From the NCBI GenBank assembly GCA_001780275.1, contig MFGB01000013.1, forward strand, positions 10,693-74,692: a DNA stretch of 64,000 nucleotides, in the 5' to 3' direction. Positions 5,869 through 43,945 of the stretch are shown here, piece by piece. Made by a program: the position numbers and the translations under genes. The stretch is from Candidatus Falkowbacteria bacterium RIFOXYA2_FULL_47_19. GTDB lineage: Bacteria; Patescibacteriota; Patescibacteriia; Patescibacteriales; UBA12075. Numbering within the stretch: position 1 is the stretch's first letter; each line of letters starts with the position of its first letter. The notes under the pieces were generated by a model that did no database searches, was not told where the DNA came from, and was given only the letters and a program-made list of their open reading frames with translations.

Positions 5869-5966
5869 ATTACAAATACACAAATCAGAACACAAATTCA
5901 CAAATACTCTATCTCGCGCTGATCGTGTATTTGTGTTATTTGTGATTAAATTTGTGAATTTGTAAT
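5869..5966. repeat. Low-complexity hairpin element, 'CACAAAT' family, copy 1
   Basis: Left arm attacaaatacacaaatcagaacacaaattcacaaatac is imperfectly complementary to right arm gtatttgtgttatttgtgattaaatttgtgaatttgtaat. It fills the pilB-pilC gap. Confidence 0.85.
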
Positions 5967-5972
5967 AAAAAT

Positions 5973-7007
5973 ATGAATTTAAAAGACAAAGCGATTTTTT
6001 TCCGGAATTTGGCGATCATGCTAAAATCCGGTTTAACCATCACTGAGGCGCTCGATATTCTTACCGATGAGGCCAGCGGCCGGCTTAAAAAAACGCTTAA
6101 CACGATATTGGCTTCGGTCGCGTCCGGCAATTCTTTAGCCTCGTCCTACGAGCGTTTTCCCCGGCTGTTTTCGCCCTTTTTGACCAACGTCGTGCGCGCC
6201 GGCGAATCATCGGGAAATTTAGAGAATAACCTGGAAAATATCGCCGAACGGCTAACGCGCGAGCAGGAGCTATCGGCCAAGATCAGGGGGGCGATGCTTT
6301 ATCCCGTGATCGTTCTGACCTTAAGTTTTGTATTGGGCTTGGGTCTAGCTTTTTTTATTCTGCCCAAGATCACGCCGATCTTCAAGGGTCTTAAGGTGGA
6401 CCTGCCCGCTTCGACGCGGTTCCTTATCTGGTTTTCCGGCATCGTGGAAAAACACGGCTTCGTGCTTTTGGCGGCCATGGCGGCCGTGATCGTATTTTCG
6501 GTATGGCTCTGCAGCCGCAAATTCTTCAAACCGATACTGCATTTTTTCTTTCTCCATATTCCGGTGGTGGACAGGATCAGCCGCCACAAGAATATGTCCC
6601 AGTTCAGCCATACGCTAGGCACGCTCCTAAAGAGCGGTCTTCCGGTAACGGAGGCTTTGGCCATTACCGGGGATACGATGGAGAATTATTATTATAAGAA
6701 GAGCGTTGCGGGGATACGCCGGGAGATAAGCCGGGGAACATCGATATCCGAAAGTCTGGCGAAATTCCCCGAATATTATCCGAAAATGGCGATAAGCATG
6801 ATCCGGGTGGGGGAGAAATCGGGCCGGTTGGAAGACGAGCTTTTTAACCTGGCCAAAATATACGGCGAAGAGGTGGAAAACGCCGGCAAGAACCTGGCGA
6901 ACGCCGTGGAGCCGGTTTTACTTATAATTATCGGCGCTGTCGTAGGAGGATTGGCCCTATCCATAATTACGCCGATCTATAAGATTACCGGGAATGTTTA
7001 CCGGTAA
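5973..7007 (+). CDS. pilC: Type IV pilus platform protein PilC/GspF family
   Basis: 344 aa with two GspF-type repeats (LAIMLKSGLTITEAL / LGTLLKSGLPVTEAL), three TM segments and the typical C-terminal tail ...LSIITPIYKITGNV. Confidence 0.9.
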   Translation: MNLKDKAIFFRNLAIMLKSGLTITEALDILTDEASGRLKKTLNTILASVASGNSLASSYERFPRLFSPFLTNVVRAGESSGNLENNLENIAERLTREQELSAKIRGAMLYPVIVLTLSFVLGLGLAFFILPKITPIFKGLKVDLPASTRFLIWFSGIVEKHGFVLLAAMAAVIVFSVWLCSRKFFKPILHFFFLHIPVVDRISRHKNMSQFSHTLGTLLKSGLPVTEALAITGDTMENYYYKKSVAGIRREISRGTSISESLAKFPEYYPKMAISMIRVGEKSGRLEDELFNLAKIYGEEVENAGKNLANAVEPVLLIIIGAVVGGLALSIITPIYKITGNVYR

Positions 7008-7008
7008 T

Positions 7009-7111
7009 ATTACATATACACAAATCAGAACACGAATTCACAAATACAAGATATACTTTAATATTAGCCGAATATTTGTGTTATTTGTGATTAAATTTGT
7101 GAATTTGTAAT
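7009..7111. repeat. Low-complexity hairpin element, 'CACAAAT' family, copy 2
   Basis: The arms are near-identical to 5869-5966 (the right arm tatttgtgttatttgtgattaaatttgtgaatttgtaat is identical). The loop differs. It fills the gap from pilC to the next gene. Confidence 0.85.
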
Positions 7112-7120
7112 CATAATGAA

Positions 7121-7570: not shown

Positions 7571-7675
7571 GATACAAGGATCCAAGATACAATAACCAAA
7601 CAAATTTCAAATTACATATTTAAAGCGCTAATCTGGTTTGAACATTGATATTTGTAACTTGTATCTTGTTTCCTG
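7571..7675. repeat. Low-complexity hairpin element, 'GATACAAG' family, copy 1
   Basis: gatacaaggatccaagatacaataaccaaacaaatttcaaatt... pairs with ...atatttgtaacttgtatcttgtttcc. The left arm is ~80% identical to 34121-34165. Confidence 0.75.
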
Positions 7676-7690
7676 GAAATTGCATACGGA

Positions 7691-8182: not shown

Positions 8183-8241
8183 GATCCGGGGAAGATCGCG
8201 CAATTCATCAATTTATAATTCATAATTTATAGAAAAATCAT

Positions 8242-8640: not shown

Positions 8641-8708
8641 GTCGATTTTTCTGGTGTTTGTATATTACTGCAGGTATTTTAGCGTTTACGGAAAAATTGC
8701 GGTAATGA

Positions 8709-8851
8709 TTGGATATTAGATATTGGATATTGTGATACAGTTTTAGATATGTATTCTATCCGAAAAGATAATATTTAATATTCATCAGATTTTAATATCA
8801 TTTAAACATCTTGTCCCCGTAGCGTAATACCCAATATCCAATTTCTAATAT
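8709..8851. repeat. Low-complexity hairpin element, 'GGATATT' family, copy 1
   Basis: The left arm ttggatattagatattggatattgtgatacag is identical to 38923-38954. The right arm is ...aatacccaatatccaatttctaatat. Confidence 0.8.
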
Positions 8852-8869
8852 AAAAAATTTAAGTTTTAT

Positions 8870-9426: not shown

Positions 9427-9831
9427 ATGCAACAAACAAACGGAACTGACGTTAAGAACAATAAGTCCGGCTTCGCCACCTTGGTCGCCGTGATCATAAT
9501 CGGCGCGGTATCGTTGGTTATGGCCAAGAACGCGACAATTTTGGATTTAGGGGAGATCAATGCGGCCTTTGCCTATGACCGGGGCGAAGAGGCGCTAGCG
9601 ATAGCCGAGGGATGCGTCGAGGAGACCATCCGGCGTTTTACGCTTGATCCGGATTATAGCGCGAATGGTTTTAATTTATCCTTAGGCTCCGGCAATTGCG
9701 TGATAGATACGGTAGCGAACGGGATCGTTCGCGAGATAACGGTGGTCGGCCGTACGGATAATTTTTATCGGACAGTTAACGCGGCCATAAGTCTGACCGA
9801 TGAAGGGATGGTTTTAGAGAGCTGGGATTAG
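9427..9831 (+). CDS. PilX-like pilus-associated protein (pilin-like N-terminal helix without Glu+5)
   Basis: MQQTNGTDVKNNKSG|FATLVAVIIIGAVSLVMA. The track ORF starts at GTG 9385, overlapping the upstream stop, so the start is uncertain. Confidence 0.5.
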   Translation: MQQTNGTDVKNNKSGFATLVAVIIIGAVSLVMAKNATILDLGEINAAFAYDRGEEALAIAEGCVEETIRRFTLDPDYSANGFNLSLGSGNCVIDTVANGIVREITVVGRTDNFYRTVNAAISLTDEGMVLESWD

Positions 9832-9910
9832 TTTTTTAGCTGTTAGTTTATAGCTTATAGGTTGTTAGCAAGATCCCTGGATGCCATAAAAACCTAAAAG
9901 CTTTCAAGGT

Positions 9911-11437
9911 ATGCTGAATATAAACAAAAGATCTTTCGGGCTAGATATTTCCGATTATTCGATCGAGGCGGTCGTTCTGGAGGAGACCGCCTCCGGAATC
10001 GGCGTATCCGCTTCGGGAGGGATAACGCTTGATCCGGGAACGGTTGAACGGGGCCGGATAAAAGATGGGGAAAAATTAAAAACGGCGCTGGCCGCGGTTT
10101 TAGCAAGCGTCGGTTTAAATCCGTCGGAACCGCGGGAATGGGTTTTCGGTTTGCCGGAATCATTGGTTTTTACGCACGTTTTCGCGATCGAAAATTTCAA
10201 TGAACACGAGGTCGATAAGGTTATAGCCCAGGAGATCGAAAACACCGTCCCGTTCCGAAAGAGCGATCTTACCTATTCTTATAAAACGTTCGCGGATACG
10301 TCGGCCGGAAACAAAACCATGGCTTTTATAGCCGCCGCCCCGAAAGCAGAAGTTTCGGAATGGCGGGCTTTTTTCGAGACAGCGGGCGTCCGCGTTAAAA
10401 TTTTCGATATCGAATCGTTGGCGGTTTTCCGGGGGATGTTCGATAAACACCCCGATCTGCCGGTCTGCCTGGTCGATATCGGAGCGGTTACGTCGTTGGT
10501 TTCGATCTTTACCCCTCTGGGTCTTACCTATTCATATATTATTAACGCGGCCGGTAAGAATATAAGCTACCAGCTAGCGAGCGGACTGGATATCGGTTTT
10601 ACGGAAGCGGAAAAGTTAAAGATCGAATACGGCCTGTCTGCAGGAGGCGATCATCCGGCTGCGGCCGGCATTATCGGTAATATTTTGGATAAAATATTCA
10701 AAGAGATAAAAAACAACATAGATTATTTTAATAATGAGTACGGTTTTCCGCCGGTCAAAGAAATAATCGTTACCGGCGGCACAAGCAGACTTTCTGGATT
10801 TTCGGAATATATAAAAACCCTGGATTTAGGGGTTGATATCCGCGTCGGCCAGCCGCTGTATGAAAGCGCCGGCATCGAATATATCGAGGCAATCGGCCTG
10901 GCCGCGCGCGCCCTGAAGGGTTATTGGGATAAAACCGATCCCTCGATCCCGGTGCCGCCGCCAGCCGTAAAGACCGAAAGACCTGAAAATATAAAGATCT
11001 GGCTTCAGCGGACGCGGGAATTCATTAAAACGGCTCGCCCTCTGATCACCAATCGTCGGCATATCGCCGTTGCCCTGGGTTTGCTGTCGGCATTGGCCGG
11101 TTTTTACGTTTTTTTCGATTATTTTCTGGGCAGCGTGAACCGCGCGGCCGCGCCGTTACCGCCGGTTTCGGAATCCCGGATCGAAGCCGCTATCGCTCCC
11201 GAGCCGGCGGCGGAGAACGTCGCAAGCTCCTCCCGGGAAATAAAGATAATCATTAAGAATATAAGTTCTCCCCTTAATGTCCGCCAGGGACCGGGGACAA
11301 GTTTCAAGGTTGTCGGCAAGGCTAACCCCCGAGAAGAATTTATCGTTATCGAGGAAGCTGATAGTTGGATAAAAATTAGTTTATCCGGCGGCGAAGAGGG
11401 ATGGGTGTTCGGGGAATATGCGGATAAGGTTGAATAG
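9911..11437 (+). CDS. pilM: PilM-like actin-fold pilus assembly protein fused to a TM segment and a C-terminal SH3b domain
   Basis: N-terminus SFGLDISDYSIEAVVLE... and ...IIVTGGTSRLSGF are PilM/FtsA-like. A TM segment HIAVALGLLSALAGFYVFFDYF follows. The C-terminus NVRQGPGTSFKVVGKANPREEFIVIEEADSWIKISLSGGEEGWVFGEY resembles bacterial SH3_3. Confidence 0.8.
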   Translation: MLNINKRSFGLDISDYSIEAVVLEETASGIGVSASGGITLDPGTVERGRIKDGEKLKTALAAVLASVGLNPSEPREWVFGLPESLVFTHVFAIENFNEHEVDKVIAQEIENTVPFRKSDLTYSYKTFADTSAGNKTMAFIAAAPKAEVSEWRAFFETAGVRVKIFDIESLAVFRGMFDKHPDLPVCLVDIGAVTSLVSIFTPLGLTYSYIINAAGKNISYQLASGLDIGFTEAEKLKIEYGLSAGGDHPAAAGIIGNILDKIFKEIKNNIDYFNNEYGFPPVKEIIVTGGTSRLSGFSEYIKTLDLGVDIRVGQPLYESAGIEYIEAIGLAARALKGYWDKTDPSIPVPPPAVKTERPENIKIWLQRTREFIKTARPLITNRRHIAVALGLLSALAGFYVFFDYFLGSVNRAAAPLPPVSESRIEAAIAPEPAAENVASSSREIKIIIKNISSPLNVRQGPGTSFKVVGKANPREEFIVIEEADSWIKISLSGGEEGWVFGEYADKVE

Positions 11438-11520
11438 TATTTAGTATCCAGTATTTTGTATTTAGCGAAGTGGGACCCGATTAATTGCCAGATACAAGAT
11501 ACTGGATACTAAATACAAAA
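11438..11520. repeat. Intercistronic hairpin (TATTTAGTATCCAGTA words)
   Basis: tatttagtatccagtattttgtatttag ... agatacaagatactggatactaaatacaaaa form imperfect inverted arms immediately after the pilM stop. Confidence 0.75.
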
Positions 11521-11531
11521 TGTGTTATAAT
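11503..11531 (+). promoter_or_regulatory. Candidate extended -10 promoter for the major pilin
   Basis: tgtgtTATAAT has TG at 11523-11524 and TATAAT at 11526-11531. The -35 is weak. It lies 19-28 nt upstream of the pilin start codons. Confidence 0.5.
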
Positions 11532-11549: not shown

Positions 11550-12056
11550 ATGTTTTCTATGAACAAAAATAAAGGCTTTACTTTAATCGAACTTTTGATC
11601 GTTATCGCCATTATCGCCGCTTTGTCCGCACTGGCTTTCGTGGCCTTAAATCCGGTAGCGCGGTTCCAGGATTCGAGAAACGCGCAGAGGTGGGCCGATG
11701 TCAATATGATCATGTCGGCCATTAAGCTCCACCAAGTGGATAACGGCGGAACCTACCTGGATTCCATCGTGGCCTTGACCAATGATCTTTATTACCAGAT
11801 CGGAGCCGGCGACGCCTGCAACGACACCTGTTCGAACCCGACGGTAGTGCTCCAGACCGCCTGTGTAGATCTCGAGGGTCTTATTGACGCGGCTTATATG
11901 CCGGAGTGGCCGATTGATCCGAATTTGAGCGGCGCTTCGTCCGACGAGACCGGTTATTACCTTGTCAAGGACTCCTACGGCCGCCTAATCGTCGGCGCCT
12001 GCGCCGAAGAGCTGGGTTCGGCCGATGCTGTCCAGTCGATCGAGATTACGCGTTAG
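11550..12056 (+). CDS. Major type IV pilin candidate (paralog 1)
   Basis: MFSMNKNKG|FTLIELLIVIAIIAALSALAF is a canonical class III signal (the alternative start is ATG 11559). The C-terminal half has four conserved Cys. The gene is followed by a strong terminator. Confidence 0.85.
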   Translation: MFSMNKNKGFTLIELLIVIAIIAALSALAFVALNPVARFQDSRNAQRWADVNMIMSAIKLHQVDNGGTYLDSIVALTNDLYYQIGAGDACNDTCSNPTVVLQTACVDLEGLIDAAYMPEWPIDPNLSGASSDETGYYLVKDSYGRLIVGACAEELGSADAVQSIEITR

Positions 12057-12084
12057 GCTTTAGGCTTTAGGCTTTAGCTTTTAG
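12057..12084. repeat. Tandem heptamer (AGGCTTT)x~4
   Basis: gctttaggctttaggctttagcttttag lies directly after the pilin stop codon and uses the TTAGG/CTTTAG word family. Confidence 0.8.
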
Positions 12085-12097
12085 ATAAATAAAATAT

Positions 12098-12131
12098 AAA
12101 ACGGCTTTAAAGCCGTTTTTAATTTTTTTTT
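12098..12131 (+). terminator. Rho-independent terminator
   Basis: aaaacggcttt/aaagccgtttt palindromic stem followed by T5 and T9 runs. Confidence 0.85.
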
Positions 12132-13661: not shown

Positions 13662-13683
13662 AAATAATATCCAAAACGGATCG

Positions 13684-13711
13684 GTAGAGACGCGATTAAT
13701 CGCGTCTCTAC
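13684..13711. repeat. Perfect 28-nt palindrome
   Basis: gtagagacgcgattaatcgcgtctctac. Confidence 0.9.
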
Positions 13712-13732
13712 AATGTATATTCCAATAATCCA

Positions 13733-13761
13733 AAACGGAGAAAAAATTTCTCCGTTTTTTT
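13733..13761 (+). terminator. Rho-independent terminator
   Basis: aaacggagaaa/tttctccgttt 11-bp stem with a 3-nt loop and a T7 run. Confidence 0.85.
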
Positions 13762-13792
13762 GTTGCTCCCACCCACAACATTCTTCACCCCA

Positions 13793-13935
13793 CCCCGCCC
13801 TTCGTGAAGGGCGGGGCGCCCCTCTCCAATTCTGGAGAGGGGACGCTTGGACTTACGCGTTACCCCCTCTCCAGAATTGGAGAGGGGGAGGGGGGTGAGG
13901 GAATTGGAGAGGGGGAAGGGATTGGGACAGGGAAA
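13793..13935. repeat. Cluster of three GC-rich hairpins plus G-rich degenerate repeats (REP-like)
   Basis: Hairpins are ccccgccc-ttcgtgaa-gggcgggg (13793-13816), cccctctcca-attc-tggagagggg (13819-13842) and ccccctctcca-gaat-tggagaggggg (13863-13888). These are followed by gaggggggtgagggaattggagagggggaaggg. Confidence 0.85.
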
Positions 13936-13969
13936 GATTTGGATAGGGTGAGGACATAAGACGGAGATA

Positions 13970-14002
13970 AATAAAAAAATATCCCCGATGGGGAGATATT
14001 TA
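13970..14002 (-). terminator. Rho-independent terminator of the Fic gene
   Basis: On the - strand: aaatatctcccc-atc-ggggatattt stem followed by a T run. Confidence 0.7.
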
Positions 14003-14037
14003 CATCACCTTTTCAATTTTTTCCTTTGGAGCGGGAT

Positions 14038-15102
14038 TTACCCGAAATAATTCTTTACGGCAAATTCAAATTGCTTTAAAAATAATTCTTTGAAATATGA
14101 AACATTATTCTGCTCGTAAAACAGAAGAATCGCCTTTTTATATTCCACTTCATCCATACTGCGATAAGAAAGCGGACAGGAGCCGAAAGATTGCAAAATA
14201 GCGTTGCCGCTTAAACGGCTGGTGCGTTTGTTGCCGTCCACAAACGGCTGAATGTAAGCGATTAGCAGCATTAAAGTGACCGCTTTCTCGAAAATATTTT
14301 CTTTTTCATTGGTTTTTTTGACTGCTTTTTCCAGGGCTTCTCTGATTTGAAATTCGTTGTCCAGCGGTTTGTAGTTCGTTCCGGTAATGCCAACCAAAGT
14401 TTTTCTCAGGTTTTTTGTCACATTCAAGCCATCCACCAGCAAAGAATGGACATTTTCTATCTTAAGAACAGATATAGACTGAAAATCCGTTTTGTTATTA
14501 CTGATATAATCCAAAGCCTTTTTGTGATTCAAAATCATAACGGCTTCTTCTTTGGTGCGGCCCGGCGCTTCCTGCCGGTTTTTAATTAGCTGTTCCGTTT
14601 CCAAAAGACTATAAGTATTGCCTTCGATTTTAGAAGACTTCCAGCTGAAATCAATGTTGAGCCTCTCAATTTCCTTTCTCAAAGCATCGGTCGAAATATC
14701 TTTTATCTTCCCTCTGTAAATTCCATCCAATTCAATCAATCTGTTTTTTTCATCATCGGTAAATATATTCTTCAACTGGGAGAAAATATCAAAATTAAAC
14801 TCTTTTTTGATTTTTCTTTGGTCGACCTCCGCGGAAAAATACTTTTCCACGTCAATTTTTTTTATAATCGGATACTCAGAAGAGAGTTTATATACAACCG
14901 CTCGTCCAGCGCCCTGACGTTCAATGAAGCCGAGTCCGAGTAATTTCTCCAAGTCCCTGGAAATGGTGATTTTGGTAATTTGCCCCAGGTCTTTTTGGAT
15001 ATGCTTAAAAATTTGCCCGATTGAGGCGGATTTCCCGATTTCAATAAAAGCCAAGATAGCATTTTGGCGCTCGCTTAGTTTATTCTTTAATTTTTTTGTC
15101 AT
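14038..15102 (-). CDS. Fic/DOC-family protein with an N-terminal winged-HTH and a degenerate active-site motif
   Basis: N-terminus LSERQNAILAFIE...ISRDLEKLLGLGFIERQG is HTH-like, and the inhibitory-helix motif SSKIEGN is present. The Fic motif reads QPFVDGNKRTSR instead of HPFxxGNGRxxR. The gene is visibly more AT-rich than its neighbours. Confidence 0.85.
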   Translation of the reverse strand: MTKKLKNKLSERQNAILAFIEIGKSASIGQIFKHIQKDLGQITKITISRDLEKLLGLGFIERQGAGRAVVYKLSSEYPIIKKIDVEKYFSAEVDQRKIKKEFNFDIFSQLKNIFTDDEKNRLIELDGIYRGKIKDISTDALRKEIERLNIDFSWKSSKIEGNTYSLLETEQLIKNRQEAPGRTKEEAVMILNHKKALDYISNNKTDFQSISVLKIENVHSLLVDGLNVTKNLRKTLVGITGTNYKPLDNEFQIREALEKAVKKTNEKENIFEKAVTLMLLIAYIQPFVDGNKRTSRLSGNAILQSFGSCPLSYRSMDEVEYKKAILLFYEQNNVSYFKELFLKQFEFAVKNYFG

Positions 15103-15108
15103 AAATTT

Positions 15109-15219
15109 TCATATCATTTATACACTTTAATCATATCATTTATGATACGAAAAATCAAGTAAATTATTATTTTTTTATGTATAATTACTAATATAAGTCA
15201 TTATTTTCATATCATTATT
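15109..15219. repeat. Three direct copies of TCATATCATT(T/A)AT upstream of the Fic start
   Basis: Copies lie at 15109-15121, 15131-15143 (identical, 22-bp spacing) and 15207-15219 (1 mismatch). Confidence 0.8.
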
Positions 15220-15461: not shown

Positions 15462-15492
15462 TTCGACAATCGAAAATCGGCAATCGAAAATC
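15462..15492. repeat. Solo arm of the 'CAATCG' inverted-repeat family
   Basis: ttcgacaatcgaaaatcggcaatcgaaaatcc resembles the right arm of the 35846-36316 cassette. No partner arm is nearby. Confidence 0.7.
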
Positions 15493-15601: not shown

Positions 15602-15619
15602 ATAATTTTCAAAACCCCT

Positions 15620-16120
15620 ATGAAAAACAACAAAGGCTTTACCCTTATCGAACTCCTGATCGTCATCGCCATTATTGCGGCTCTCTCGGCTTTAGCATTT
15701 GTCGCTTTAAATCCCCTGGCGCGGTTTCAGGATTCGCGTAATACCAAAAGATGGACCGATGTTAATATGCTGGTGAGCGCGCTGAAATTAGATCAGGTTG
15801 ATAACGGCGGTCTTTATTTAGGAGATATTGAAGATTTGACGGTGGGTAATTATCACATGATCGGCAAGGGCAATGATTGTAGTGTTATTACTTGTTTCAA
15901 CCCAACAGTAGAATTACAGACGGTCTGTATCGATTTGTCGGAATTAGTAGATGAGGGCTATCTGCCGGATGTACCGATTGATCCCAATGCGGACGGCGCC
16001 GATGAAGAATATACTTACTATTATTTATCAAAAACAAGTTCTTCTACGATCACGGTCGGCGCCTGCAGCGAGGAATCAGGCAGTAACGAGGCGGTGCCGG
16101 AGATTATGGTAACGAGATAA
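15620..16120 (+). CDS. Major type IV pilin candidate (paralog 2)
   Basis: MKNNKG|FTLIELLIVIAIIAALSALAF. The N-terminal ~60 aa and the C-terminal Cys framework are conserved with the 11550 pilin, the central region is diverged, and there are many synonymous differences. Confidence 0.85.
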   Translation: MKNNKGFTLIELLIVIAIIAALSALAFVALNPLARFQDSRNTKRWTDVNMLVSALKLDQVDNGGLYLGDIEDLTVGNYHMIGKGNDCSVITCFNPTVELQTVCIDLSELVDEGYLPDVPIDPNADGADEEYTYYYLSKTSSSTITVGACSEESGSNEAVPEIMVTR

Positions 16121-16122
16121 TT

Positions 16123-16240
16123 TAAAATGTAAATGTCAAAATGTAAAATGACGATGCAAAATTAAAAATGAGCTAAACTTTTAAAGTATTCGTGATTTTA
16201 CATTTTAAACTGTCATTTTTAATTTTGACATTTACACTTT
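16123..16240. repeat. Intercistronic hairpin (GTAAAAT/ATGTCAAAAT words) between the pilin and the giant gene
   Basis: aaaatgtaaatgtcaaaatgtaaaatgacgatgcaaaattaaaaatga is imperfectly complementary to tgattttacattttaaactgtcatttttaattttgacatttacac. Confidence 0.8.
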
Positions 16241-16326
16241 GAATTAAAAGATAAATTGCCGTTCAGATTTCAATTAATTTGGACGGCCAACTGCAAAATT
16301 CAGCATTCCCCATGATGCATTTCCCC

Positions 16327-34017: not shown

Positions 34018-34074
34018 CTTTGGCGTTAGGGCGTTAGGCTTTAGGCAATAGGGGTTAAGGCTTTAGGATTTTGG
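34017..34074. repeat. Direct low-complexity TTAGG/TTAGGG word repeat
   Basis: gctttggcgttagggcgttaggctttaggcaataggggttaaggctttaggattttgg lies directly after the giant gene's stop. Confidence 0.8.
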
Positions 34075-34103
34075 TTAATTTGATTTGGCGGAAATGGGGA
34101 GTT

Positions 34104-34114
34104 TGTGGTATAAT
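34104..34114 (+). promoter_or_regulatory. Candidate extended -10 promoter (TGTGGTATAAT)
   Basis: tgtggTATAATaat, the same string as at 39208-39221. Confidence 0.5.
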
Positions 34115-34118
34115 AATT

Positions 34119-34248
34119 CAAGACACAAGGACACAAGATACAAGCTCCAAACAAATCTCAAACTTCAATAATCAAACAATTAAATTTGTTTAGTATTTGC
34201 AAAATTGTGATTTGGAATTTGTTTGTATCCTTGTATCTTGTATCCTTG
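34119..34248. repeat. Low-complexity hairpin element, 'GATACAAG' family, copy 2 (5' leader of the 34262 gene)
   Basis: caagacacaaggacacaagatacaagctccaaacaaatctcaaa ... tttggaatttgtttgtatccttgtatcttgtatccttg. It ends 13 nt before the ATG. Confidence 0.8.
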
Positions 34249-34261: not shown

Positions 34262-35845
34262 ATGTTGAAGTTAAATAAATTTTTTTACCTTAATATTCTC
34301 CTATTCTTCCTGGTCATGGCCGGCGTCTTCGGGGTCGGTTTTTTCGTGATGCATAAGACCAATGCTTTGTTCGCCGCGGAAGAAGAGACGGATTCTACGC
34401 CGCCGGCCATATATAATATTAATGTCGATAAAATAAGCGCCACTTCATCGGAAATAACCTGGGAAACCGATGAAGCGGCCGATTCTCTCGTGAATTACGG
34501 CCTGGATAAATCTTACGGCGTGGTCCGCGATCCCCGGGCCGATAAAACTGAACACGCTATTCTTCTCGATAACCTGGAGGCCGGGAAAACTTATTATTTT
34601 CGGGTAACCTCTTCCGACGCGGACGGAAACCAGAGCATATCGAACGATTTTAGTTTCCTTACCCCTAAAACAGAGAAAGAATTGATCTCCGAGGTTCCTT
34701 CCGAGAATATAATCGAAGCAGGAGAAGGGGGGTTGAAAGACTTGATTACGGAAGAGGGAGTAGGGGGATTATCACAGCGGGGAGAGGAGGTTCTATTGAA
34801 GCTTATTGAAAACATTACCAGCGAGGAAGTTTTGGAGGAAGTTAAGGAAAAAGTCGAAGAAAAAGCCGAAGACGTGCTTCTTCCGCCGACCATTATCCTG
34901 GATTACGCGGACGTGGAGGTGGGTACCGATTACGCGATTATTACCTGGGAGACCGACAAAGAGTCCAATACGATGGTAGCCCTCGCCGAAGACGATGATT
35001 ATGACTCGGTATCCGAGAATCCGTATACATGGAAAGAAGGGGAGCCGGATGAGTTCGTACTTAAGCATCGAGTCGAAGTTACCGGTTTGACGCCGGCTAC
35101 CACTTATCATTTTCAGGTTTCTTCGGAATCATCCCTGGGCCTTAAGGGCATTTCCGGCGATAAAACCTTTAAAACCAAGTCGATCCTGCCGGAAATTTAC
35201 AATATCCAGATAATTAAGATCGAAGAGGAGTCGGCGACGATCAGGTGGGTAACGAACGTTCCCTGTTCATCGATCATAGAATATACCAACCTTAATTCCG
35301 GCGACACAAAATTAGAGGGTAATTCAAGTTTTTTGACGATTCATTCCATGAAGCTGACCAACCTGGTTTTCGATACTTATTATTCCGCCGTTATCAGGGT
35401 GGAAAGCGAAGAAGGGGAAAAGGCTGAAAGCGAACCCCTGACTTTCATCACGACCAAAGACGAATACCCGCCGATAATTTCAAAGGTAAAGACAGAGTCC
35501 ACCCTTTATCCCGGGTCGGACAATAAAGTGCAGACGATCGCCAGCTGGGAAACCGATGAGCCTTCCAAATGCCAGTTGTTTTACCACCAGGGACTCGTTA
35601 CGATAGACGAGCCGAGTAGTTTACCCCTGGAAAACGATCTCGCGGCCAGGCACGTCCAGGTGGTAACTAATTTTATACCCTCGACGGTATATAAATTTTG
35701 GATAATCTGCGCGGATGAAGCGGAAAATAAGGCCAAATCCGAGGATTTTACAATGTTAACCCCGTCCCAGGAAGAAAGCATCATCGATATCATCCTGAAG
35801 AATTTCGAAAGCTCCTTCGGATGGGTTAAGAAATTGAAGATCTAG
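34262..35845 (+). CDS. Membrane-anchored protein with four FN3-like repeats
   Basis: N-terminal TM segment, then four repeats of the type PP.I.N+.+..I....A.I.W.T+E...S.V.Y...........H.V.+..L...T.Y+F.V.S (for example TYYFRVTSSDADGN and TYHFQVSSESSLG). Confidence 0.8.
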   Translation: MLKLNKFFYLNILLFFLVMAGVFGVGFFVMHKTNALFAAEEETDSTPPAIYNINVDKISATSSEITWETDEAADSLVNYGLDKSYGVVRDPRADKTEHAILLDNLEAGKTYYFRVTSSDADGNQSISNDFSFLTPKTEKELISEVPSENIIEAGEGGLKDLITEEGVGGLSQRGEEVLLKLIENITSEEVLEEVKEKVEEKAEDVLLPPTIILDYADVEVGTDYAIITWETDKESNTMVALAEDDDYDSVSENPYTWKEGEPDEFVLKHRVEVTGLTPATTYHFQVSSESSLGLKGISGDKTFKTKSILPEIYNIQIIKIEEESATIRWVTNVPCSSIIEYTNLNSGDTKLEGNSSFLTIHSMKLTNLVFDTYYSAVIRVESEEGEKAESEPLTFITTKDEYPPIISKVKTESTLYPGSDNKVQTIASWETDEPSKCQLFYHQGLVTIDEPSSLPLENDLAARHVQVVTNFIPSTVYKFWIICADEAENKAKSEDFTMLTPSQEESIIDIILKNFESSFGWVKKLKI

Positions 35846-36316
35846 GGATTGCCGATTGACGATTTTCGATTGGCGATTGACGACATAAACAGAGGTTTTA
35901 TTTATGAATCAGGAAATACTAAAAAAAAGATTCAAGGATTTCGCCTTACGGATCATGAAATTAGTACGAGCATTACCGAAAACGATTGAAGGCAAAGCTG
36001 TTGGTAACCAGATATTCCGTTCCGGAACGTCCTCTGCGGCCAATTATCGCGCCGCTTGCCGCGCCAGATCAAAAAAAGATTTTATCGCTAAATTAGGCAT
36101 AGTTGAAGAAGAGTTAGATGAAACTATGTTTTGGCTGGAAATGATTATGGAAAGTAATATGATGAAGCGCCAGCTTTTAACCCCGCTTTTTGACGAAGCT
36201 AATGAATTGCTGTCCATTACTATTAAGTCAAAAGTTACGGCCAGAAAGAATAATCAAAAATAAATACGAAATAAGATTGCATCAATCGGCAATCGAAAAT
36301 CGTCAATCGGCAATCC
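35846..36316 (+). mobile_element. IVS-like cassette: ~38-bp inverted repeats enclosing a four-helix-bundle gene
   Basis: IR-L is ggattgccgattgacgattttcgattggcgattgacgac (35846-35884). IR-R is gcatcaatcggcaatcgaaaatcgtcaatcggcaatcc (36279-36316). The cassette starts 1 nt after the upstream stop and ends 1 nt before the downstream ATG. Confidence 0.6.
35904..36263 (+). CDS. Four-helix-bundle protein (family formerly called '23S rRNA intervening sequence protein')
   Basis: 119 aa with FKDFALRIMKLVRALPKT..., ...GNQIFRSGTSSAANYRAACRARSKKDFIAKLGIVEEELDETMFWLE, the typical signature of this family. Confidence 0.85.
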   Translation: MNQEILKKRFKDFALRIMKLVRALPKTIEGKAVGNQIFRSGTSSAANYRAACRARSKKDFIAKLGIVEEELDETMFWLEMIMESNMMKRQLLTPLFDEANELLSITIKSKVTARKNNQK

Positions 36317-37639
36317 ATGGAACCTATTATAAAATTAAAAGACCTGGAAATTACCTATAATTTAGGGAAGGTCAACGAATATAAAGCCACCAAAGGGATG
36401 AATATGGAAATTTATCCGGGGGAATTCGTGGCTTTTTTCGGTCCGTCCGGCTGCGGCAAATCGACCGTTTTTTACAGTATTTTAGGAATTCTTGAGCCTT
36501 CCGACGGCCAGCTTTTAGTTAAAGGCCAGAATCCGTATTCATATTCACCGGAAGAGATGGTCCGGTTCCAGACCAAGACGATCGGTATAATATACCAGGC
36601 CTTTTATCTTATTAATTCGATCTCGGTCATCGATAACGTCGTTTTGCCGCAGATCTTCCACGGGGTTAATCCGCGCCGGCGGGAGGCCTGGGCCAGGCAG
36701 CTTTTAAAGCGTTTCGGCATGGAGGGTCAGGGAGAAAAATACCCCGATAACCTGTCCGGCGGCCAATCACAGAGAGTTTCCGTCGCCCGATCGATGGTTA
36801 ATAATCCCGATATTCTTTTGGCGGATGAGCCTACCGGCAACCTGGACAGCGTTTCCACGAAACAGGTAATGACCTCTTTGGATGAGATCAATTCCGTGGA
36901 TAAGAAAACGGTAATTATGATCACCCACAACGCCGCCCAATTAGCTTACTGTCACCGAGTGTTTTATATGAAGGACGGGCTCCTGGAACGGGTCGTGCCT
37001 AATCCTGATAAGAAGCAGATCGCTAAAATTGACAAGCAGAAGATATTGGTAACGGAAATGGACCAGTTGTCAAAGATATTCCCTTATAATTCGCCGACCG
37101 AACTTAAGGTAAAAAGCCTGGTCAACTACATGACCCAGGACCTTAATTTTCACCAGTTGCAAAGATTGGAAGAGCTCGTTAAATACGTGGTAGAAAGGAA
37201 AATGGACAAGAAGGAATTCCACCGTATCTTAAAACGGAATTATCCTGACGGAGGCATCGGTGTTTCGGAGGCGTTAGCCGAAACGATGGCCGACAAAGTC
37301 GATAAAGTGATCCGGCAGTCGGAGGATGCGCGCCGTTTTCGGCGCCGATTCCTGTCCAATAATTTTTTCGCCGAGGAACCGGAATTGATCTCGAGACTTA
37401 CCAGATATATAGCAGAAGAGAACGAAGGGGAATTGGCGTTCGTGCAGAAAAAAAGGCTTAAGGAGCTTGTTTATAACCGGATCTCCGGTTTGATCTCCCG
37501 GGAAGAATTCAAACTTACCTTGCGCCGCTCCCTGGACGAGGGAGGGGTGGGAATAAGCAAAAACGCTTCCCGCAAACTGACGAATCATTTCGAGAAAATA
37601 CTTATCCAGGGAAGCGAAGACCCGGGACACGGACATTAA
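36317..37639 (+). CDS. ABC transporter ATP-binding protein (MacB/LolD-like) with a ~210-aa C-terminal extension containing a tandem duplication
   Basis: Walker A GPSGCGKST, signature LSGGQSQRVSVARS and Walker B LLADEPTGNLD. The extension repeats are ...QLQRLEELVKYVVERKMDKKEFHRILKRNYPDGGIGVSEALAETMADKVDKVIRQSED and ...QKKRLKELVYNRISGLISREEFKLTLRRSLDEGGVGISKNASRKLTNHFEKILIQGSED. Confidence 0.9.
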   Translation: MEPIIKLKDLEITYNLGKVNEYKATKGMNMEIYPGEFVAFFGPSGCGKSTVFYSILGILEPSDGQLLVKGQNPYSYSPEEMVRFQTKTIGIIYQAFYLINSISVIDNVVLPQIFHGVNPRRREAWARQLLKRFGMEGQGEKYPDNLSGGQSQRVSVARSMVNNPDILLADEPTGNLDSVSTKQVMTSLDEINSVDKKTVIMITHNAAQLAYCHRVFYMKDGLLERVVPNPDKKQIAKIDKQKILVTEMDQLSKIFPYNSPTELKVKSLVNYMTQDLNFHQLQRLEELVKYVVERKMDKKEFHRILKRNYPDGGIGVSEALAETMADKVDKVIRQSEDARRFRRRFLSNNFFAEEPELISRLTRYIAEENEGELAFVQKKRLKELVYNRISGLISREEFKLTLRRSLDEGGVGISKNASRKLTNHFEKILIQGSEDPGHGH

Positions 37640-37643: not shown

Positions 37644-37706
37644 GGGCGTTAGGGTTATAGGCGTTAGGACGTTAGCTAACGCCTAAAGCCTAAAGCCTAA
37701 AAGCTA
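37644..37706. repeat. Intercistronic hairpin, 'TTAGG/CCTAA' family
   Basis: gggcgttagggttataggcgttaggacgttagc | gctaacgcctaaagcctaaagcctaaaagc. It fills the gap from the ATPase stop (37639) to the permease ATG (37712). Confidence 0.85.
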
Positions 37707-38908: not shown

Positions 38909-38922
38909 TTGATGACAAAATA

Positions 38923-39056
38923 TTGGATATTAGATATTGGATATTGTGATACAGTAAGAAAGCGCACAGCACAGTAGAAATGTTAATTCGATATACATCA
39001 AGCATAATTGGCGGAATTTAAGATTGTAGCATAATATCTAATATCCAATATCTAAT
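38923..39056. repeat. Low-complexity hairpin element, 'GGATATT' family, copy 2
   Basis: The left arm is identical over 32 nt to 8709-8740. The right arm is gtagcataatatctaatatccaatatctaat. Confidence 0.8.
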
Positions 39057-39207: not shown

Positions 39208-39218
39208 TGTGGTATAAT
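39208..39218 (+). promoter_or_regulatory. Candidate extended -10 promoter (TGTGGTATAAT)
   Basis: aaaatgtggTATAATaatacc, 55 nt upstream of ATG 39274. Confidence 0.5.
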
Positions 39219-39273
39219 AATACCAGCAGATTGTTGATGTTAATCGGCAATCAATATAATTAAAAAGATCCCC

Positions 39274-41073: not shown

Positions 41074-41093
41074 AAAATAAAAATATTTATCTA

Positions 41094-41129: not shown

Positions 41130-41366
41130 ATTCGGATGATACAAAATTAGATTTGCTGTCTTGACTTGAAATTTACTTGAAAATATTGTATACTTAAAGT
41201 ATATCTGGTAATCTATCCACAAAACAATCACAGATATTTTTTGTGTTAAAAAAGAGTAATATTAAGATAATTGTTAAATAAAGGATAAATTAATTAAATT
41301 ATTGCTTTTAAAGAAAAACTAAAATCATTAATTTTAGTGTTTTTAGTATAAAAACAAGGCAAAATT

Positions 41367-42524
41367 GTGAGAAGAGCCGGTATAGTCAGCCTTATTTTAT
41401 TCTTGTTTATGGCCTGGACAACCCCTGTCCTGGCTGGTTTTGGTATTTCCCCTCCTAATGTCCGTACCAGCAAACCGGTATTCGCCGGTTCTCATTTCGA
41501 ACAGAAGATCACTCTCCTGCGTTCCTCCGCGGAAGAGGTTTTAACCGCAAAGATCGCGGTTAACGCGCCGGAGATCGAGGATTGGATCAAGATCGACCAG
41601 GGGTTCGAATTCGACCTTCCCAAGGGCAATACCCGCGTGCCCATGATCGTTATCGTGGACATACCCAAAGACGCCGAGATCGGCGAATATAAAGGCTATA
41701 TGAACGTTAAGGTTGTACCTAAGGAAAGTACCGGCGGCGGCGGCGTAGCTATCGCTTTGGGCGCGCGGATCGAGATCGATATTACCGTGACCGATGAACC
41801 GTTTCTGGAATTTCTGGTCCGTAAGGTGGAGATCCCGGATTTCAAAACATTGGGAAAACCCTGGAGTTGGAAAATATTCGCGCGACTTTTCGATCGGCTA
41901 TTTTATCACATAAACGTGCCGATGAAGATCGAAAATACGGGCAATATCAAAGTGGCGCCGACCAAGGTTGTCTTGGACGTTTATGACCGGCTAGAGAAAG
42001 AGATGATCGAAACCTATACGGACGAGTCCATAAAAAAGGTCCCGCCCTTTTCTACCGAAACCGTTAGCGCGTCCTTTGCCACGAAGCTGCCTCCCGGCGG
42101 CTACTGGGGGCAGGTAAAGATATATAAGGACAACGAGATCATCCGCAAGGACAAGCTTTTATTCCAGATCGCTCCTTACGCGGGCGAGGGCTGGGATACC
42201 GGTCCCGGCGCCTGGGCCTGGGTAACGCTGGGAACGATCGTTTTAATATTGCTGATCATTGTTTTCGTGTTGATAAAAATTAAAATTTGGCGAAATTTAT
42301 TCAGGATATTGTTTATTTTATCCTGGCCGGCGCGATTCGTCTGGCTGAAAATAAAACAAGCCGCCGCCGCCCTGAAGCTTAAATTCTGGCAGTGGATGCA
42401 TAAAAAGTCGGCCCAGTACCAGGGTGTCGATATCCAAACACCGGCAGAAAACCCAAAAACCACCGCTGTCGCTCCCAGGTCAAAACGACGGCAGGATGTC
42501 GTTAATTTAAAAGATGACAAATAG
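41367..42524 (+). CDS. Surface protein with signal peptide, beta-rich ectodomain, C-terminal TM and a basic tail
   Basis: GTG start. Signal MRRAGIVSLILFLFMAWTTPVLA, C-terminal TM WVTLGTIVLILLIIVFVLI. No enzymatic motif recognised. Confidence 0.7.
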   Translation: MRRAGIVSLILFLFMAWTTPVLAGFGISPPNVRTSKPVFAGSHFEQKITLLRSSAEEVLTAKIAVNAPEIEDWIKIDQGFEFDLPKGNTRVPMIVIVDIPKDAEIGEYKGYMNVKVVPKESTGGGGVAIALGARIEIDITVTDEPFLEFLVRKVEIPDFKTLGKPWSWKIFARLFDRLFYHINVPMKIENTGNIKVAPTKVVLDVYDRLEKEMIETYTDESIKKVPPFSTETVSASFATKLPPGGYWGQVKIYKDNEIIRKDKLLFQIAPYAGEGWDTGPGAWAWVTLGTIVLILLIIVFVLIKIKIWRNLFRILFILSWPARFVWLKIKQAAAALKLKFWQWMHKKSAQYQGVDIQTPAENPKTTAVAPRSKRRQDVVNLKDDK

Positions 42525-42590
42525 CTTTTAGGTTTTAGCTTATAGCTTTTAGGCTCAACTAACAGCTATAAGCTAACAGCTATAAGCTCA
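42524..42590. repeat. Intercistronic hairpin (AGCTTATAGCT/AGCTATAAGCT words)
   Basis: gcttttaggttttagcttatagcttttaggc ... aacagctataagctaacagctataagc. Confidence 0.75.
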
Positions 42591-42597
42591 AATCTAA

Positions 42598-43866
42598 ATG
42601 TCCCCATGCTTGTTCAAATCAGTTATTTTTATATTTTTTGCCATGGCGATTTTCTCGCCGGGTTTTTTGTTGCCTGAAAAAGTGTCCGCTGCCGGTTCTT
42701 TGCCCACCTATATTGAAGTGCAGCTGTCTTGCGGCGATGGTTACGCCGAGATCATGAGCGGGGAAGCCTGCGATCCGGGCACGCCGCCCGATATTCCGGA
42801 AGACCTGGGAACGACTACCTGCGCCAGTTTTAACGACGTTTTCGGAAATCCGTTCGTAAGCGGAAATCTTGATTGCCTGTCGGATTGTACCGCTTTCGAT
42901 TCCGACATGTGCTATTCTTGCGGCAACGGAGCGAAGGAGGTGGCGGAAGAATGCGATGGCTCTGATTTCGCGGGAAAAACCTGCATTACCCTGGGATATC
43001 AGAGCGGAGCTCTGGTTTGCAGTCTTGATTGCCGGGTAAGCACCGCCGGCTGCGTGCCAATGGAAACGCAGCCCGGAACCCCCGGCGGCGGCAGCCACGG
43101 CGGCGGTTCCGGCAGTGCTTCGGGTTTTCTCCCCGGTTCTAATACGGAGTCGGTCACTAAGGTCATAGCGCAGGGCAAATCATATCCGCATGCCGACGTG
43201 CACATACTGGTCGACGGAGTGGTTACCGGAATCGTAAAGACCGACGCTTTGGCTAATTTTTATTTTGAAACCGTTGACATAAAGCCCGGAGTCGCCGGTT
43301 TCGGATTCTGGTCGACCGACTTAAACGGCCTTAAGTCGACGCTTCTTACCTTGACCTTCCGCGTCATCTCCGGGGCCGTAACCACTATTTCCGGCGTTTA
43401 TATCGCTCCGACCATCGATATCGACAAACAGTCGGTAAGACAGGGCGAGCCCATAAAAATATTCGGCCAGACAGTTCCCTCGACCGAAGTGCATGTTCAT
43501 ATCAATTCGGAAAAGGAATTCATAGAAAAAATAAGCAGCGCGGAAACCGGCAGCTGGGAATTATCTTTCGATACGGCGCCCCTGGAAGAGGATCTGCATA
43601 CCGCCAAAGCCTTATTCCAGGTAGCGACGGAAGGGAATATCGTGAACAGCGGTTTTTCCCGGTCGGTCAGCTTCTATGTCGGTAAGACCGGCGGCGAAGT
43701 ACCTTGTCCGGAAGCCGATCTAAATCATGACGGCCGGGTGAATCTGACCGACTTTTCCATTCTTTTATATTGGTGGGGAACCGATAACGCTTGCGCCGAC
43801 CAAAACCAGAACGGCGTTGTCGATCTGGTGGATTTCAGTATCATGATGTATTATTGGACCGGTTAG
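42598..43866 (+). CDS. Secreted protein with Cys-rich CG(D/N)G...EECD repeats and a C-terminal type-I-like dockerin
   Basis: Signal peptide, then two Cys-rich repeats (CGDGYAEIMSGEACD / CGNGAKEVAEECDGSD). The C-terminus DLNHDGRVNLTDFSILLYWWG...DQNQNGVVDLVDFSIMMYYW contains two Ca-binding dockerin segments. Confidence 0.75.
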   Translation: MSPCLFKSVIFIFFAMAIFSPGFLLPEKVSAAGSLPTYIEVQLSCGDGYAEIMSGEACDPGTPPDIPEDLGTTTCASFNDVFGNPFVSGNLDCLSDCTAFDSDMCYSCGNGAKEVAEECDGSDFAGKTCITLGYQSGALVCSLDCRVSTAGCVPMETQPGTPGGGSHGGGSGSASGFLPGSNTESVTKVIAQGKSYPHADVHILVDGVVTGIVKTDALANFYFETVDIKPGVAGFGFWSTDLNGLKSTLLTLTFRVISGAVTTISGVYIAPTIDIDKQSVRQGEPIKIFGQTVPSTEVHVHINSEKEFIEKISSAETGSWELSFDTAPLEEDLHTAKALFQVATEGNIVNSGFSRSVSFYVGKTGGEVPCPEADLNHDGRVNLTDFSILLYWWGTDNACADQNQNGVVDLVDFSIMMYYWTG

Positions 43867-43945
43867 GCTTTAGCTTTTAGGCACTAGGCTTTAGCATTCA
43901 CGTCTAACAACCTCAATCCTAAAGCCTAACGCCTAAAGCCTAAAA
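43867..43945. repeat. Intercistronic hairpin, 'TTAGG/CCTAA' family
   Basis: gctttagcttttaggcactaggctttagc ... cctaaagcctaacgcctaaagcctaaaa. Confidence 0.8.

Follow-up and report, generated by a model that had tools for sequence, protein, structure and literature searches.

The spacers between genes of the pilus and surface-protein operons in a 64,000-nucleotide stretch of Candidatus Falkowbacteria bacterium RIFOXYA2_FULL_47_19 (contig MFGB01000013.1, positions 10,693 to 74,692 of the forward strand; hereafter the window, numbered from its first letter) are occupied by long hairpins whose arms consist of short words, mostly heptamers, repeated in tandem. With moderate confidence, we interpret these word hairpins as heptamer inverted-repeat elements resembling the intervening sequences (IVSs) of 23S rRNA, which spread as DNA and, after transcription, are probably cleaved by RNase III. 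Judged by how they differ between relatives, they seem to behave as fast-turnover repeat DNA and not as tailor-made RNA switches. One element of the window carries a gene of the S23p family between its arms, and it is this cassette that provides the closest link to the rRNA IVSs.

An earlier note on the window had listed inverted repeats in at least 12 gaps, and an inverted repeat is present at every coordinate that it gave. We folded 12 gene-less intervals together with 200 dinucleotide-preserving shuffles of each, and in 11 of them the minimum free energy (MFE) lies well below that of the shuffles (z -3.2 to -11.7), with 0-1 of the 200 shuffles folding as well; the twelfth, a TTAG-word array with a weak inverted partner at 9833-9909, is not significant as a hairpin (z +0.15). 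The significant hairpins, all on the + strand, comprise two built of CACAAAT words, at 5869-5966 between the T2SSE and T2SSF genes (MFE -34.6 kcal/mol, z -7.6, 38 bp) and at 7009-7111 after the T2SSF gene (z -4.7); two of GATACAAG words at 7571-7675 (z -4.0) and 34119-34248 (z -7.2); two of GGATATT words at 8709-8851, with an 80-nt interior (z -3.2), and at 38920-39056 (z -5.7); a TATTTAG-word hairpin at 11438-11520 after a PilM-like gene (z -11.7); a TAAAATG-word hairpin at 16118-16246 in the gap between a pseudopilin gene and a 5912-aa gene, with 64-nt arms that are 77% complementary (z -7.5); two of TTAGG/CCTAA words at 37644-37706, between the genes of an ATP-binding cassette (ABC) ATPase and a MacB-like permease (z -4.5), and at 43863-43945 (z -5.9); and a CTTTTAG/CTATAAG-word hairpin at 42523-42590 (z -6.4). 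The last two of these, at 42523 and 43863, start within a stop codon.

Tandem Repeats Finder (TRF) resolves the arms into tandem arrays of period 7, or in some cases 8, and finds about 25 word arrays in the window, of which almost all are intergenic and fall within the stretch from 5.8 to 44 kb. The inverted repeats are similarly placed, 17 of the 25 longest in the window being located in its ~9% intergenic DNA. At least five different AT-rich words are used (CACAAAT, GATACAAG, GGATATT, TAAAATG, TTAGGCN and GATTGnC), none of which has a tract of three or more Gs. The three multi-copy families that had been recognised before, CACAAAT, GATACAAG and GGATATT, are confirmed with two copies each, and a fourth, GATTGnC, can be added. 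The two CACAAAT elements at 5869 and 7009 are 81% identical over 114 nt and share a 39-nt arm that is 100% identical, the GGATATT elements at 8709 and 38920 have an identical arm of 33-34 nt, and the GATACAAG elements at 7571 and 34119 can be aligned over ~100 nt. The GATTGnC family consists of the two cassette arms, at 35841 and 36282, and of a partial third copy at 15463-15492 (+), a solitary arm-like array of TCGACAA/TCGAAAA words found by TRF that is identical to the right cassette arm at 18/18 nt. TTAGG/CCTAA words had been said to recur at five sites; the words are borne out and the TTAG(G)/CCTAA sites now number six (9833, 12053, 34018, 37644, 42523 and 43863).

The cassette is an inverted repeat that encloses a gene of 360 nt. 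Its arms (35841-35880 and 36282-36321, + strand) are 40 nt long and 93% complementary, fold on their own at -63 kcal/mol, and contain period-7 heptamer arrays according to TRF (35847-35883 and 36283-36315). The cargo gene (35904-36263, + strand) encodes a four-helix-bundle protein that matches PF05635 (E 3e-15) and TIGR02436 (E 6e-23), that is, the '23S rRNA intervening sequence protein' or S23p. The S23p protein, a four-helix bundle, is pentameric and has relatives in the Avd proteins of diversity-generating retroelements. The left arm contains the TAG stop codon (35843-35845) of the upstream fn3/phosphatase-like gene and the right arm contains the ATG (36317-36319) of the downstream ABC ATPase gene, and in the folded stem these two codons lie opposite each other at the helix base. 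Eleven contigs carry the cargo gene, as many as carry the ABC gene next to it. When the window was searched with tblastn, there was no further copy or remnant of S23p, and the other 11-12 elements are without it.

The same arrangement recurs around S23p genes elsewhere. We compared the contexts of ten homologues (44-72% identity). Their sources are a relative within the Falkowbacteria, another metagenomic lineage, the genome of the window itself, one metagenome-assembled genome (MAG) each from the Acidobacteria and the Desulfobacterales, a 787-kb contig and two contigs of the IMG/VR viral collection. Heptamer-word inverted repeats, mostly of the GATTnnn type, enclose the S23p gene in nine of the ten (among them L156 3001, L158 3001 and 4566, L160 3001, L163 3001, L164 1734, L166 601 and L168 601), and the S23p gene of L165 has an upstream array only. 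Each homologue lies between co-oriented operon genes, such as ABC/MacB, DUF3467/dnaJ or two ABC-transporter permease genes, and the cassette of L156 is located in the same ABC/MacB operon as that of the window, one gap further along. The homologue of the Acidobacteria MAG is surrounded by a perfect 32-nt inverted repeat, and on one of the IMG/VR contigs four copies of CGTAATT face four copies of AATTACG around the gene. GATTGCC arrays also occur in IMG/VR, but as generic heptamer arrays to which S23p genes are not adjacent, and the GGATATT and CACAAAT arms had no match in that collection. A link to phages was considered and rejected on these grounds.

An S23p open reading frame (ORF) in the loop is a feature of IVSs of the Coxiella, Leptospira and Brucella type. 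In the 23S IVS of Coxiella burnetii, the terminal stem is 28 bp long, GACAGAT heptamers in a number that varies between strains are repeated in tandem upstream of the S23p ORF, and RNase III cuts within the stem, at the first repeat; this IVS has long been suspected to be the relic of a mobile element (PMC4990558). Such IVSs, whose hosts include Coxiella, Leptospira and Salmonella, are regarded as selfish and as possibly mobile in the past (PMC4990558). The resemblance to the window elements extends to three parts: terminal inverted repeats that form a long stem (at least 28 bp in the IVSs, arms of 40 nt in the cassette, 21-50 bp in the gene-less hairpins), tandem heptamers in the stem or 5' region (here in nearly all arms), and an optional PF05635 ORF in the loop (here in one element, the cassette). 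The elements differ from IVSs in that they occupy intercistronic spacers and not helix 9, 25 or 45 of 23S rRNA, in that most copies have no ORF, and in that several unrelated word families are involved; RNase III excision is shown for the IVSs and predicted for the elements here. Since it shares its parts with the C. burnetii 23S rRNA IVS, the window cassette is, by this analogy, an IVS-type element within an mRNA.

The likely life cycle of such elements would begin with a heptamer seeded at a TAG stop codon and extended by slippage. A palindrome would then form, with its arms homogenised through template switching or gene conversion, and copying or replacement would proceed via recombination or some transposition activity. 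The elements would be co-transcribed with their operons, which is very probable given that they lie inside operons and are without terminator features. The 21-50-bp stems would be cut by RNase III, as IVS stems are, and the insert would thereby be lost from the RNA and the polycistronic message divided into segments that each have their own stability, which we propose as the reason why inserts can be tolerated between a stop codon and the next start. The argument for RNase III punctuation is one of analogy, drawn from the architecture that these elements share with the RNase III-excised 23S IVS (PMC4990558). A wider proposal, which we put forward tentatively and with low confidence, is that heptamer-word inverted repeats with or without S23p constitute a single cross-phylum class of mobile 'intervening sequences', found in 23S helices as well as in operon spacers and tolerated because RNase III removes them; S23p would be the factor, encoded by the element itself, that recognises GATTnnn-type heptamers, and in the candidate phyla radiation (CPR) the elements would serve as exchangeable punctuation by which surface-operon mRNAs are partitioned anew.

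The distribution of the word elements is markedly uneven. They had been said to fill nearly every gap of the surface operons; of the gaps located from 5.8 to 44 kb, 20 are 25 nt or longer, and of these 13 contain a hairpin and 15 a word array. None of the 12 gaps of the housekeeping part (46.9-64 kb) contains a word hairpin, as had been claimed, and neither does any of ~18 gaps in 20 kb of extra flanking DNA. Word hairpins are therefore locally enriched (13/20 here vs 0/~30 in those other gaps). The earlier note had suggested that the elements may be restricted to this region; they are not, since a contig of the same genome with the dnaK-dnaJ operon (MFGK01000045, L161, equivalent to L160, of assembly GCA_001778255.1) also carries word elements. 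This contig has a TTAGG word array upstream of dnaK and an S23p gene inside GATT-word inverted repeats between the DUF3467 gene and dnaJ; two 120-aa genes after dnaJ in L160 have no family match and no clear inverted repeats. Orthologous gaps without an element are ~45-60 nt long, and the gaps of housekeeping operons are 3-40 nt. From these patterns it appears that the elements have colonised the originally short spacers of accessory type-IV-pilus, giant-protein, ABC and cohesin-dockerin operons.

Within the gaps, the elements had been described as running from stop to start. This is true of about eight of 13; the gaps with the 8709, 34119, 38920, 11438 and 16118 elements hold a further 30-220 nt of other sequence, promoter-like sites included. 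Ten of the 13 begin no more than 14 nt from a stop codon, several of them inside it, and those that begin further away are the 8709 and 34119 elements and also the cassette's right arm, which at 36282 is 19 nt from the stop of the cargo gene. The predicted stems bring the stop codon and the next start codon to within 13 nt of the helix base.

Hairpins that directly follow stop codons and are very stable might be unconventional terminators or attenuators that work without a U-tract. The word hairpins, with 21-50 predicted base pairs that are mostly A-U, are followed by A-rich tails with 2-6 T in 10 nt and no T-tract, whereas the classic terminators have a GC-rich stem of 8-13 bp followed by a T-run (mostly 5-8 T in the 10-nt tail, with 4 after the 41091 stem). 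None of the word hairpins was reported by the terminator scan of the window, several abut the next start codon and leave no space for a promoter, and genuine GC-stem/T-run terminators mark operon ends at 12098, 12637, 13732 and 41091. Termination is thus an extremely improbable role. The same four sites qualify the contrast that had been drawn between a hairpin-rich first half and a housekeeping half with ordinary terminators, as the first half has classic terminators too. An Rfam search of the window gave nothing at the gathering threshold, including no rRNA, and at E values up to 1 there were only sub-threshold matches to the shapes of microRNA precursors.

To follow the elements across relatives, we used syntenic loci from four of them: L010, with ~85-90% nucleotide identity to the window; L012, with a MacB protein that is 92% identical and nucleotides at ~77-80%; and L014 and L017, with MacB proteins 80% and 77% identical, respectively. 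Gene order is kept in four lineages. The whole 8709 element and the 9833 array are absent from L010, where the 7571 gap is occupied by a CACAAAT-type hairpin instead; L012 has TTAGG hairpins in place of the 34119 and 38920 elements, and there two hairpins, one of them a gene-less GATTGCC hairpin, take the place of the 43863 element. Between the fn3 and ABC genes, four lineages each have an element of their own, namely the GATTGnC arms with the S23p gene in the window, a 310-nt nested palindrome in L012 (2595-2904; a CTTTTAG-word outer stem, a long AT-rich inner palindrome and a GC-rich core), direct TTTGAGAT words in L014 and a CAGATAA x4 hairpin in L017; the cargo gene is absent from the last three. 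The same arms also appear at non-orthologous gaps: that of the window's 42523 element matches L012 2600 at 25/25 nt, a GATTGnC cassette arm matches L012 10391, and a CACAAAT arm matches L010 11689.

Some elements are retained with symmetric changes. The 37644 hairpin is near-identical in L012 except for a one-word indel in each arm. In L010, the 11438 element has kept its arms with two adjacent double changes (CG,CG to AT,TA) and has an unrelated loop, and in L012 the 42523 element has kept its outer arms and exchanged its inner stem for a GC-rich mini-hairpin. Word indels are symmetric and replaced blocks are themselves palindromic, and among the one-sided substitutions six break base pairs and six keep them. 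The two-sided changes fit selection for pairing and, equally well, nested insertion or mutation by template switching (quasi-palindromes). Over short times the elements do not change, as the hairpins are identical in same-strain contigs that come from several samples. We also considered phase-variable simple sequence repeats (SSRs) and rejected them, because these contigs differ only in coding DNA or at a chimeric contig end and give no indication that copy numbers switch rapidly.

The way in which the arrays meet the stop codons points to where they start. In six of six cases, an array of TAG-containing words is in phase with the TAG of the upstream gene itself (9829-9831, 11435-11437, 12054-12056, 34015-34017, 42522-42524 and 43864-43866): the stop codon is the TAG of a 'word 0', the next TAG follows exactly 7 nt on, and with a period of 7 successive TAGs occur in all three reading frames. 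This phasing suggests that arrays are seeded at the stop codon. Some arrays are direct only, as at 8202-8231 (+; AATTCAT x4, TRF period 7, 4.1 copies, no inverted partner, gap z +0.18), at 12053-12085 (+; TTAGGCT x4.3, TRF 95% matches, starting in a stop codon and followed by the terminator at 12098-12119) and at 34018-34075 (+; TTAGG words right after the stop codon of the giant gene, TRF period 7, 7.7 copies, conserved in L012). A scan of metagenomes for the TTAGGCN pattern (TAGGCNTTAGGCNNTAG) found at least 120 stretches on contigs with a GC content of 0.32-0.69, mostly of unrelated organisms. Of 90 arrays that were analysed, 13 are accompanied by an inverted CCTAA partner, and 36 start near a stop codon (-40 to +12 nt) in the sense orientation vs 20 in the antisense orientation. 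Heptamer arrays and inverted pairs are widespread and tend to follow stop codons.

These observations raise the question of whether mutation by itself would suffice, with slippage of stop-adjacent heptamers and template switching producing palindromes that have neither function nor transposition and whose words are convergent. The phasing, the direct-only arrays, the symmetric indels and the presence of the same TTAGGCN and GATTGCC arrays in unrelated contigs with a GC content of 0.32-0.69 are what this explanation predicts, and in many bacteria, according to Mrazek 2007 (cited in PMC4679880 and PMC4692102), heptamers are the over-represented class of long SSRs. It fares less well with the paralogues, which share long stretches outside the words (including GTGATACAGT within the identical 33-34-nt arm, and the ~100 nt common to 7571 and 34119), with the lack of copy-number variation among population contigs, with the strong constraint on the two CACAAAT elements described below, and with the specific association with S23p across phyla. 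We regard it as quite unlikely to be the full account.

If the hairpins had been shaped as RNA, the transcribed strand should carry a signature. Selection on the sense transcript would favour G·U over A·C mismatches and better folding of the sense strand, and neither was found: in 23 hairpins from the window and its relatives, stem mismatches are G·T in 48 cases vs A·C in 43, with no excess of wobble pairs, and the MFE of the sense strand minus that of the antisense strand averages -0.15 kcal/mol over the 11 significant hairpins of the window (Wilcoxon p 0.90). Nothing marks a sense RNA strand. The balance of mismatches and the equal energies of the two strands indicate that the palindromy is symmetric at the DNA level.

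This bears directly on the view that the hairpins are purpose-built RNA elements under selection in the sense transcript, acting as processing sites, 3'-exonuclease barriers or devices for translational coupling that set the stoichiometry of pilus and surface proteins, with family likeness arising by duplication. Such a view would explain why each lineage retains some hairpin or word array at the same gaps, why pairing outlasts the two-sided changes at 11438 and 42523, why stop and start codons are held close to the helix base (and directly opposed in the cassette), and why the hairpins are enriched within long operons. In addition to the missing strand signature, it is challenged by the loss of elements from orthologous gaps of a ~90%-identical relative, by one-sided substitutions that break pairs as often as they keep them, by the wholesale exchange of loops and interiors, one of which is a gene, and by the inconsistent position of elements relative to promoter-like sites. 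On this evidence we consider purpose-built RNA elements unlikely, although the conservation of the CACAAAT pair, which far exceeds that of synonymous sites, would favour them.

That conservation is pronounced. Relative to L010, the gap at 5861-5972 differs at 0.9% of positions and the gap at 7008-7120 at 5.3%, vs 19.8% for third codon positions in the genes on either side (p 4e-10 and 7e-6, respectively, in a binomial test), and the near-perfect conservation of the two elements covers their loops too. The two CACAAAT elements are under constraint, or were exchanged very recently; the sequences point to the pair having gained a constrained role. The suggestion of stability punctuation under selection finds support in these two elements, and in these only.

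Constraint that includes the loops, and symmetry on both strands, would also be expected of DNA-level arrays for protein binding, with the elements acting as operator-like sites or cruciforms for a regulator of the surface operons (the response regulators of the pilus cluster, for example, or the S23p pentamer). Promoter-like sites with a TG-extended -10 (TGTGGTATAAT, TGTTATAAT) are located at 34085-34114, ~39216-39226 and 11503-11531. The first two are kept in L012 while the neighbouring hairpins are replaced, and the third, just upstream of a pilin-like gene, has its -35 hexamer within the 3' arm of the 11438 hairpin. Heptamer repeats have been found to modulate promoter use in Nostoc (bioRxiv 10.1101/2022.06.06.494920), and the conserved CACAAAT pair flanks the T2SSF gene. 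At least five unrelated word families would, however, require an equal number of binding proteins, the majority of elements have a stop codon on one side, a start codon on the other and no promoter-like site near, and the elements are dispensable in close relatives, so that a general role in protein binding seems very unlikely. The rivals of purpose-built RNA and of mutation by itself are partly compatible with the IVS-like elements that we favour.

Several observations weigh against that preferred reading and should be set beside it. There is a single S23p carrier among the 12-13 elements, and it is tied to the GATTGnC family only; the other word families may be unrelated look-alikes. The conservation of the CACAAAT pair fits a sequence-specific function better than selfish DNA. 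Relative to the promoter-like sites, the element is upstream at 11438 and downstream at 34119, and this differing placement argues against one uniform RNA role. We infer co-transcription, RNase III cleavage and the mechanism of copying or replacement. The census covers ~84 kb of one genome (the 64-kb window and 20 kb of flanks) and a handful of loci from relatives. Among the window genes that were scanned with Pfam, none has a transposase domain, and the 10-nt flanks of 13 elements have no consistent direct repeat that would be a target-site duplication; comparison of filled and empty sites in L010 does not reveal clean insertions. The label 'mobile' is thus drawn from distribution patterns only. 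The earlier suggestion of miniature mobile palindromes agrees with the presence/absence, replacement, dispersed arms, nesting, gene cargo and absence of strand bias, but no transposase, target-site duplication or mechanism has come to light.

Among known repeats, repetitive extragenic palindromic (REP)/BIME sequences, Correia/NEMIS, RUP/BOX and miniature transposable elements with inverted repeats (MITEs) are co-transcribed, and some are RNase III or mRNA-stability sites. Like the window elements, they are short non-coding palindromes in the intergenic DNA of operons with presence/absence polymorphism, and MITEs in particular share with them terminal inverted repeats and dispersed copies, including copies at non-orthologous sites across genomes. 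The word hairpins (60-140 nt, AT-rich) differ from REP/BIME in having no GTAG/CGTC-tagged, GC-rich stem and no identified RAYT or insertion-sequence partner, and from REPs and MITEs in their arms of reiterated words, in the 2-3 copies per family in 64 kb, and in showing no target-site duplication.

The only REP-like hairpin of the window is a separate one at 13684-13711 (GTAGAGACG...CGTCTCTAC; GTAG...CTAC, GTAGAGACGCGATTAATCGCGTCTCTAC), which together with a doubled palindrome, CCCCTCTCCAATTCTGGAGAGGGG, belongs to a GC-rich complex of nested palindromes at 13662-14037 with convergent genes on either side (-182 kcal/mol for 376 nt, z ~-15). Paralogous GTAGAGACG hairpins and GGTGAGGG-rich sequence are found on the dnaK contig (L160 2385-2679).

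Integron attC sites were considered and rejected, as no match to the R''/R' core sites (RYYYAAC ... GTTRRRY) was found at the 13 elements and no integrase among the scanned genes, and gene order is conserved in four lineages. Arrays of the CRISPR or TIGR type were likewise rejected: the period here is 7-8 nt, there are no spacers, and Pfam scans found no cas or Tas (Nop-domain) gene.

Other heptamer repeats are closer in construction. Arrays of GGGAATC in Xanthomonas, of ~4 units, form 70-75 convergent pairs per genome, and are located between co-oriented ORFs at most 50 bp from a stop codon or overlapping it; the heptamer SSRs of Xanthomonas and Nostoc (GGGGAYT) vary in length and sequence between close relatives (Rehm et al. 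2015, PMC4692102). The window elements likewise consist of 7-nt tandem units with an inverted array nearby, capable of forming a stem-loop, and are located between co-oriented ORFs at stop codons. In Xanthomonas and Nostoc, a single G-rich motif with G-quadruplex potential dominates, whereas here there are many AT-rich families without G-tracts, longer imperfect stems, variable interiors and one gene cargo. The short tandemly repeated repetitive (STRR) heptanucleotides of the cyanobacteria Calothrix/Anabaena, as cited in PMC4692102, and the TAACTGA repeats of Beggiatoaceae (PMC4679880) resemble the window arrays as intergenic tandem heptamers near gene ends, some with words that contain stops in all frames. 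They differ in belonging to other phyla and in that a few fixed heptamers are repeated mostly in direct arrays, with palindromes not the rule, and membership in the cyanobacterial STRR group can be dismissed since the host of the window is a Candidatus Falkowbacteria.

Already known, then, are heptamer arrays in intergenic DNA, convergent pairs of such arrays, and S23p-bearing IVSs of rRNA. Our literature search found no published description of the dense occupation of intercistronic spacers by multiple families in a CPR genome, of the turnover of such elements between co-occurring lineages, or of S23p genes consistently within heptamer-word inverted repeats in ordinary operons across phyla. 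Intervening sequences of rRNA, and the S23p genes in them, have been on record for over 30 years, with their origin, mobility and protein function unexplained. The same build of heptamer-word inverted repeats with an optional S23p gene is now found where ordinary genes adjoin in a CPR genome, and also in four or more further lineages, which offers many independent insertion contexts where filled and empty sites can be compared. For the biology of CPR bacteria, it suggests that exchangeable elements, different in strains that occur together, divide the mRNAs of pilus and surface operons into segments. It also carries a warning for annotation: long, significant intergenic hairpins need not be RNA regulators, and those studied here have no sense-strand signature.

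Nearly all genes of the window are on the + strand. Genes for sensor kinases, response regulators and a set resembling that of type-IV pili (T2SSE and T2SSF, one PilM-SH3 protein, several proteins of the prepilin type) occupy 0.3-13.7 kb, and a single ORF of 5912 aa extends from 16.3 to 34.0 kb. The region from 34.3 to 46.8 kb begins with the genes of the fn3/purple-acid-phosphatase-like protein, the S23p four-helix-bundle protein, the ABC ATPase and the MacB/FtsX permease, and also encodes dockerin- or cohesin-domain proteins that are otherwise unknown; from 46.9 kb onward there are housekeeping genes, including tRNA synthetases and pyruvate:ferredoxin oxidoreductase. Proteins identical to those of the window are encoded by GCA_001778255.1 (RIFOXYB2_FULL_47_14) and likewise by RIFOXYA2_FULL_47_19, Candidatus Falkowbacteria of the groundwater CPR.

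The window has some further features of composition. The 5912-aa ORF is uneven between 20000 and 34000, with a GC content of 0.61 at 26-28 kb vs 0.45 at the 5' end, and its GC-rich part contains (GGC)n and coding repeats of 24-39 nt. A minus-strand Fic-domain gene and its surroundings at 13662-15131 have a GC content of 0.37 vs ~0.47 in the neighbouring DNA, and no nucleotide match in L010 though both flanks align; by its composition and alignment, this segment may have been inserted or replaced. A perfect heptamer array, (GAAATTG) x4.1, is located at 47882-47910 within the coding region of tyrosyl-tRNA synthetase, and in L012, with DNA that is only near-repetitive, the peptide that it encodes (KLEIGNWKL) is conserved. 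Motifs resembling Shine-Dalgarno sequences are very scarce: upstream of 38 genes that we checked, clear cases exist only at 12188 and 50671. Several genes of the surface cluster have TCCCC or ACCCCT directly 5' of the ATG (39269-39273, 42602-42606 and 15614-15619), and this motif is conserved in the orthologues of L012, L014 and L017.

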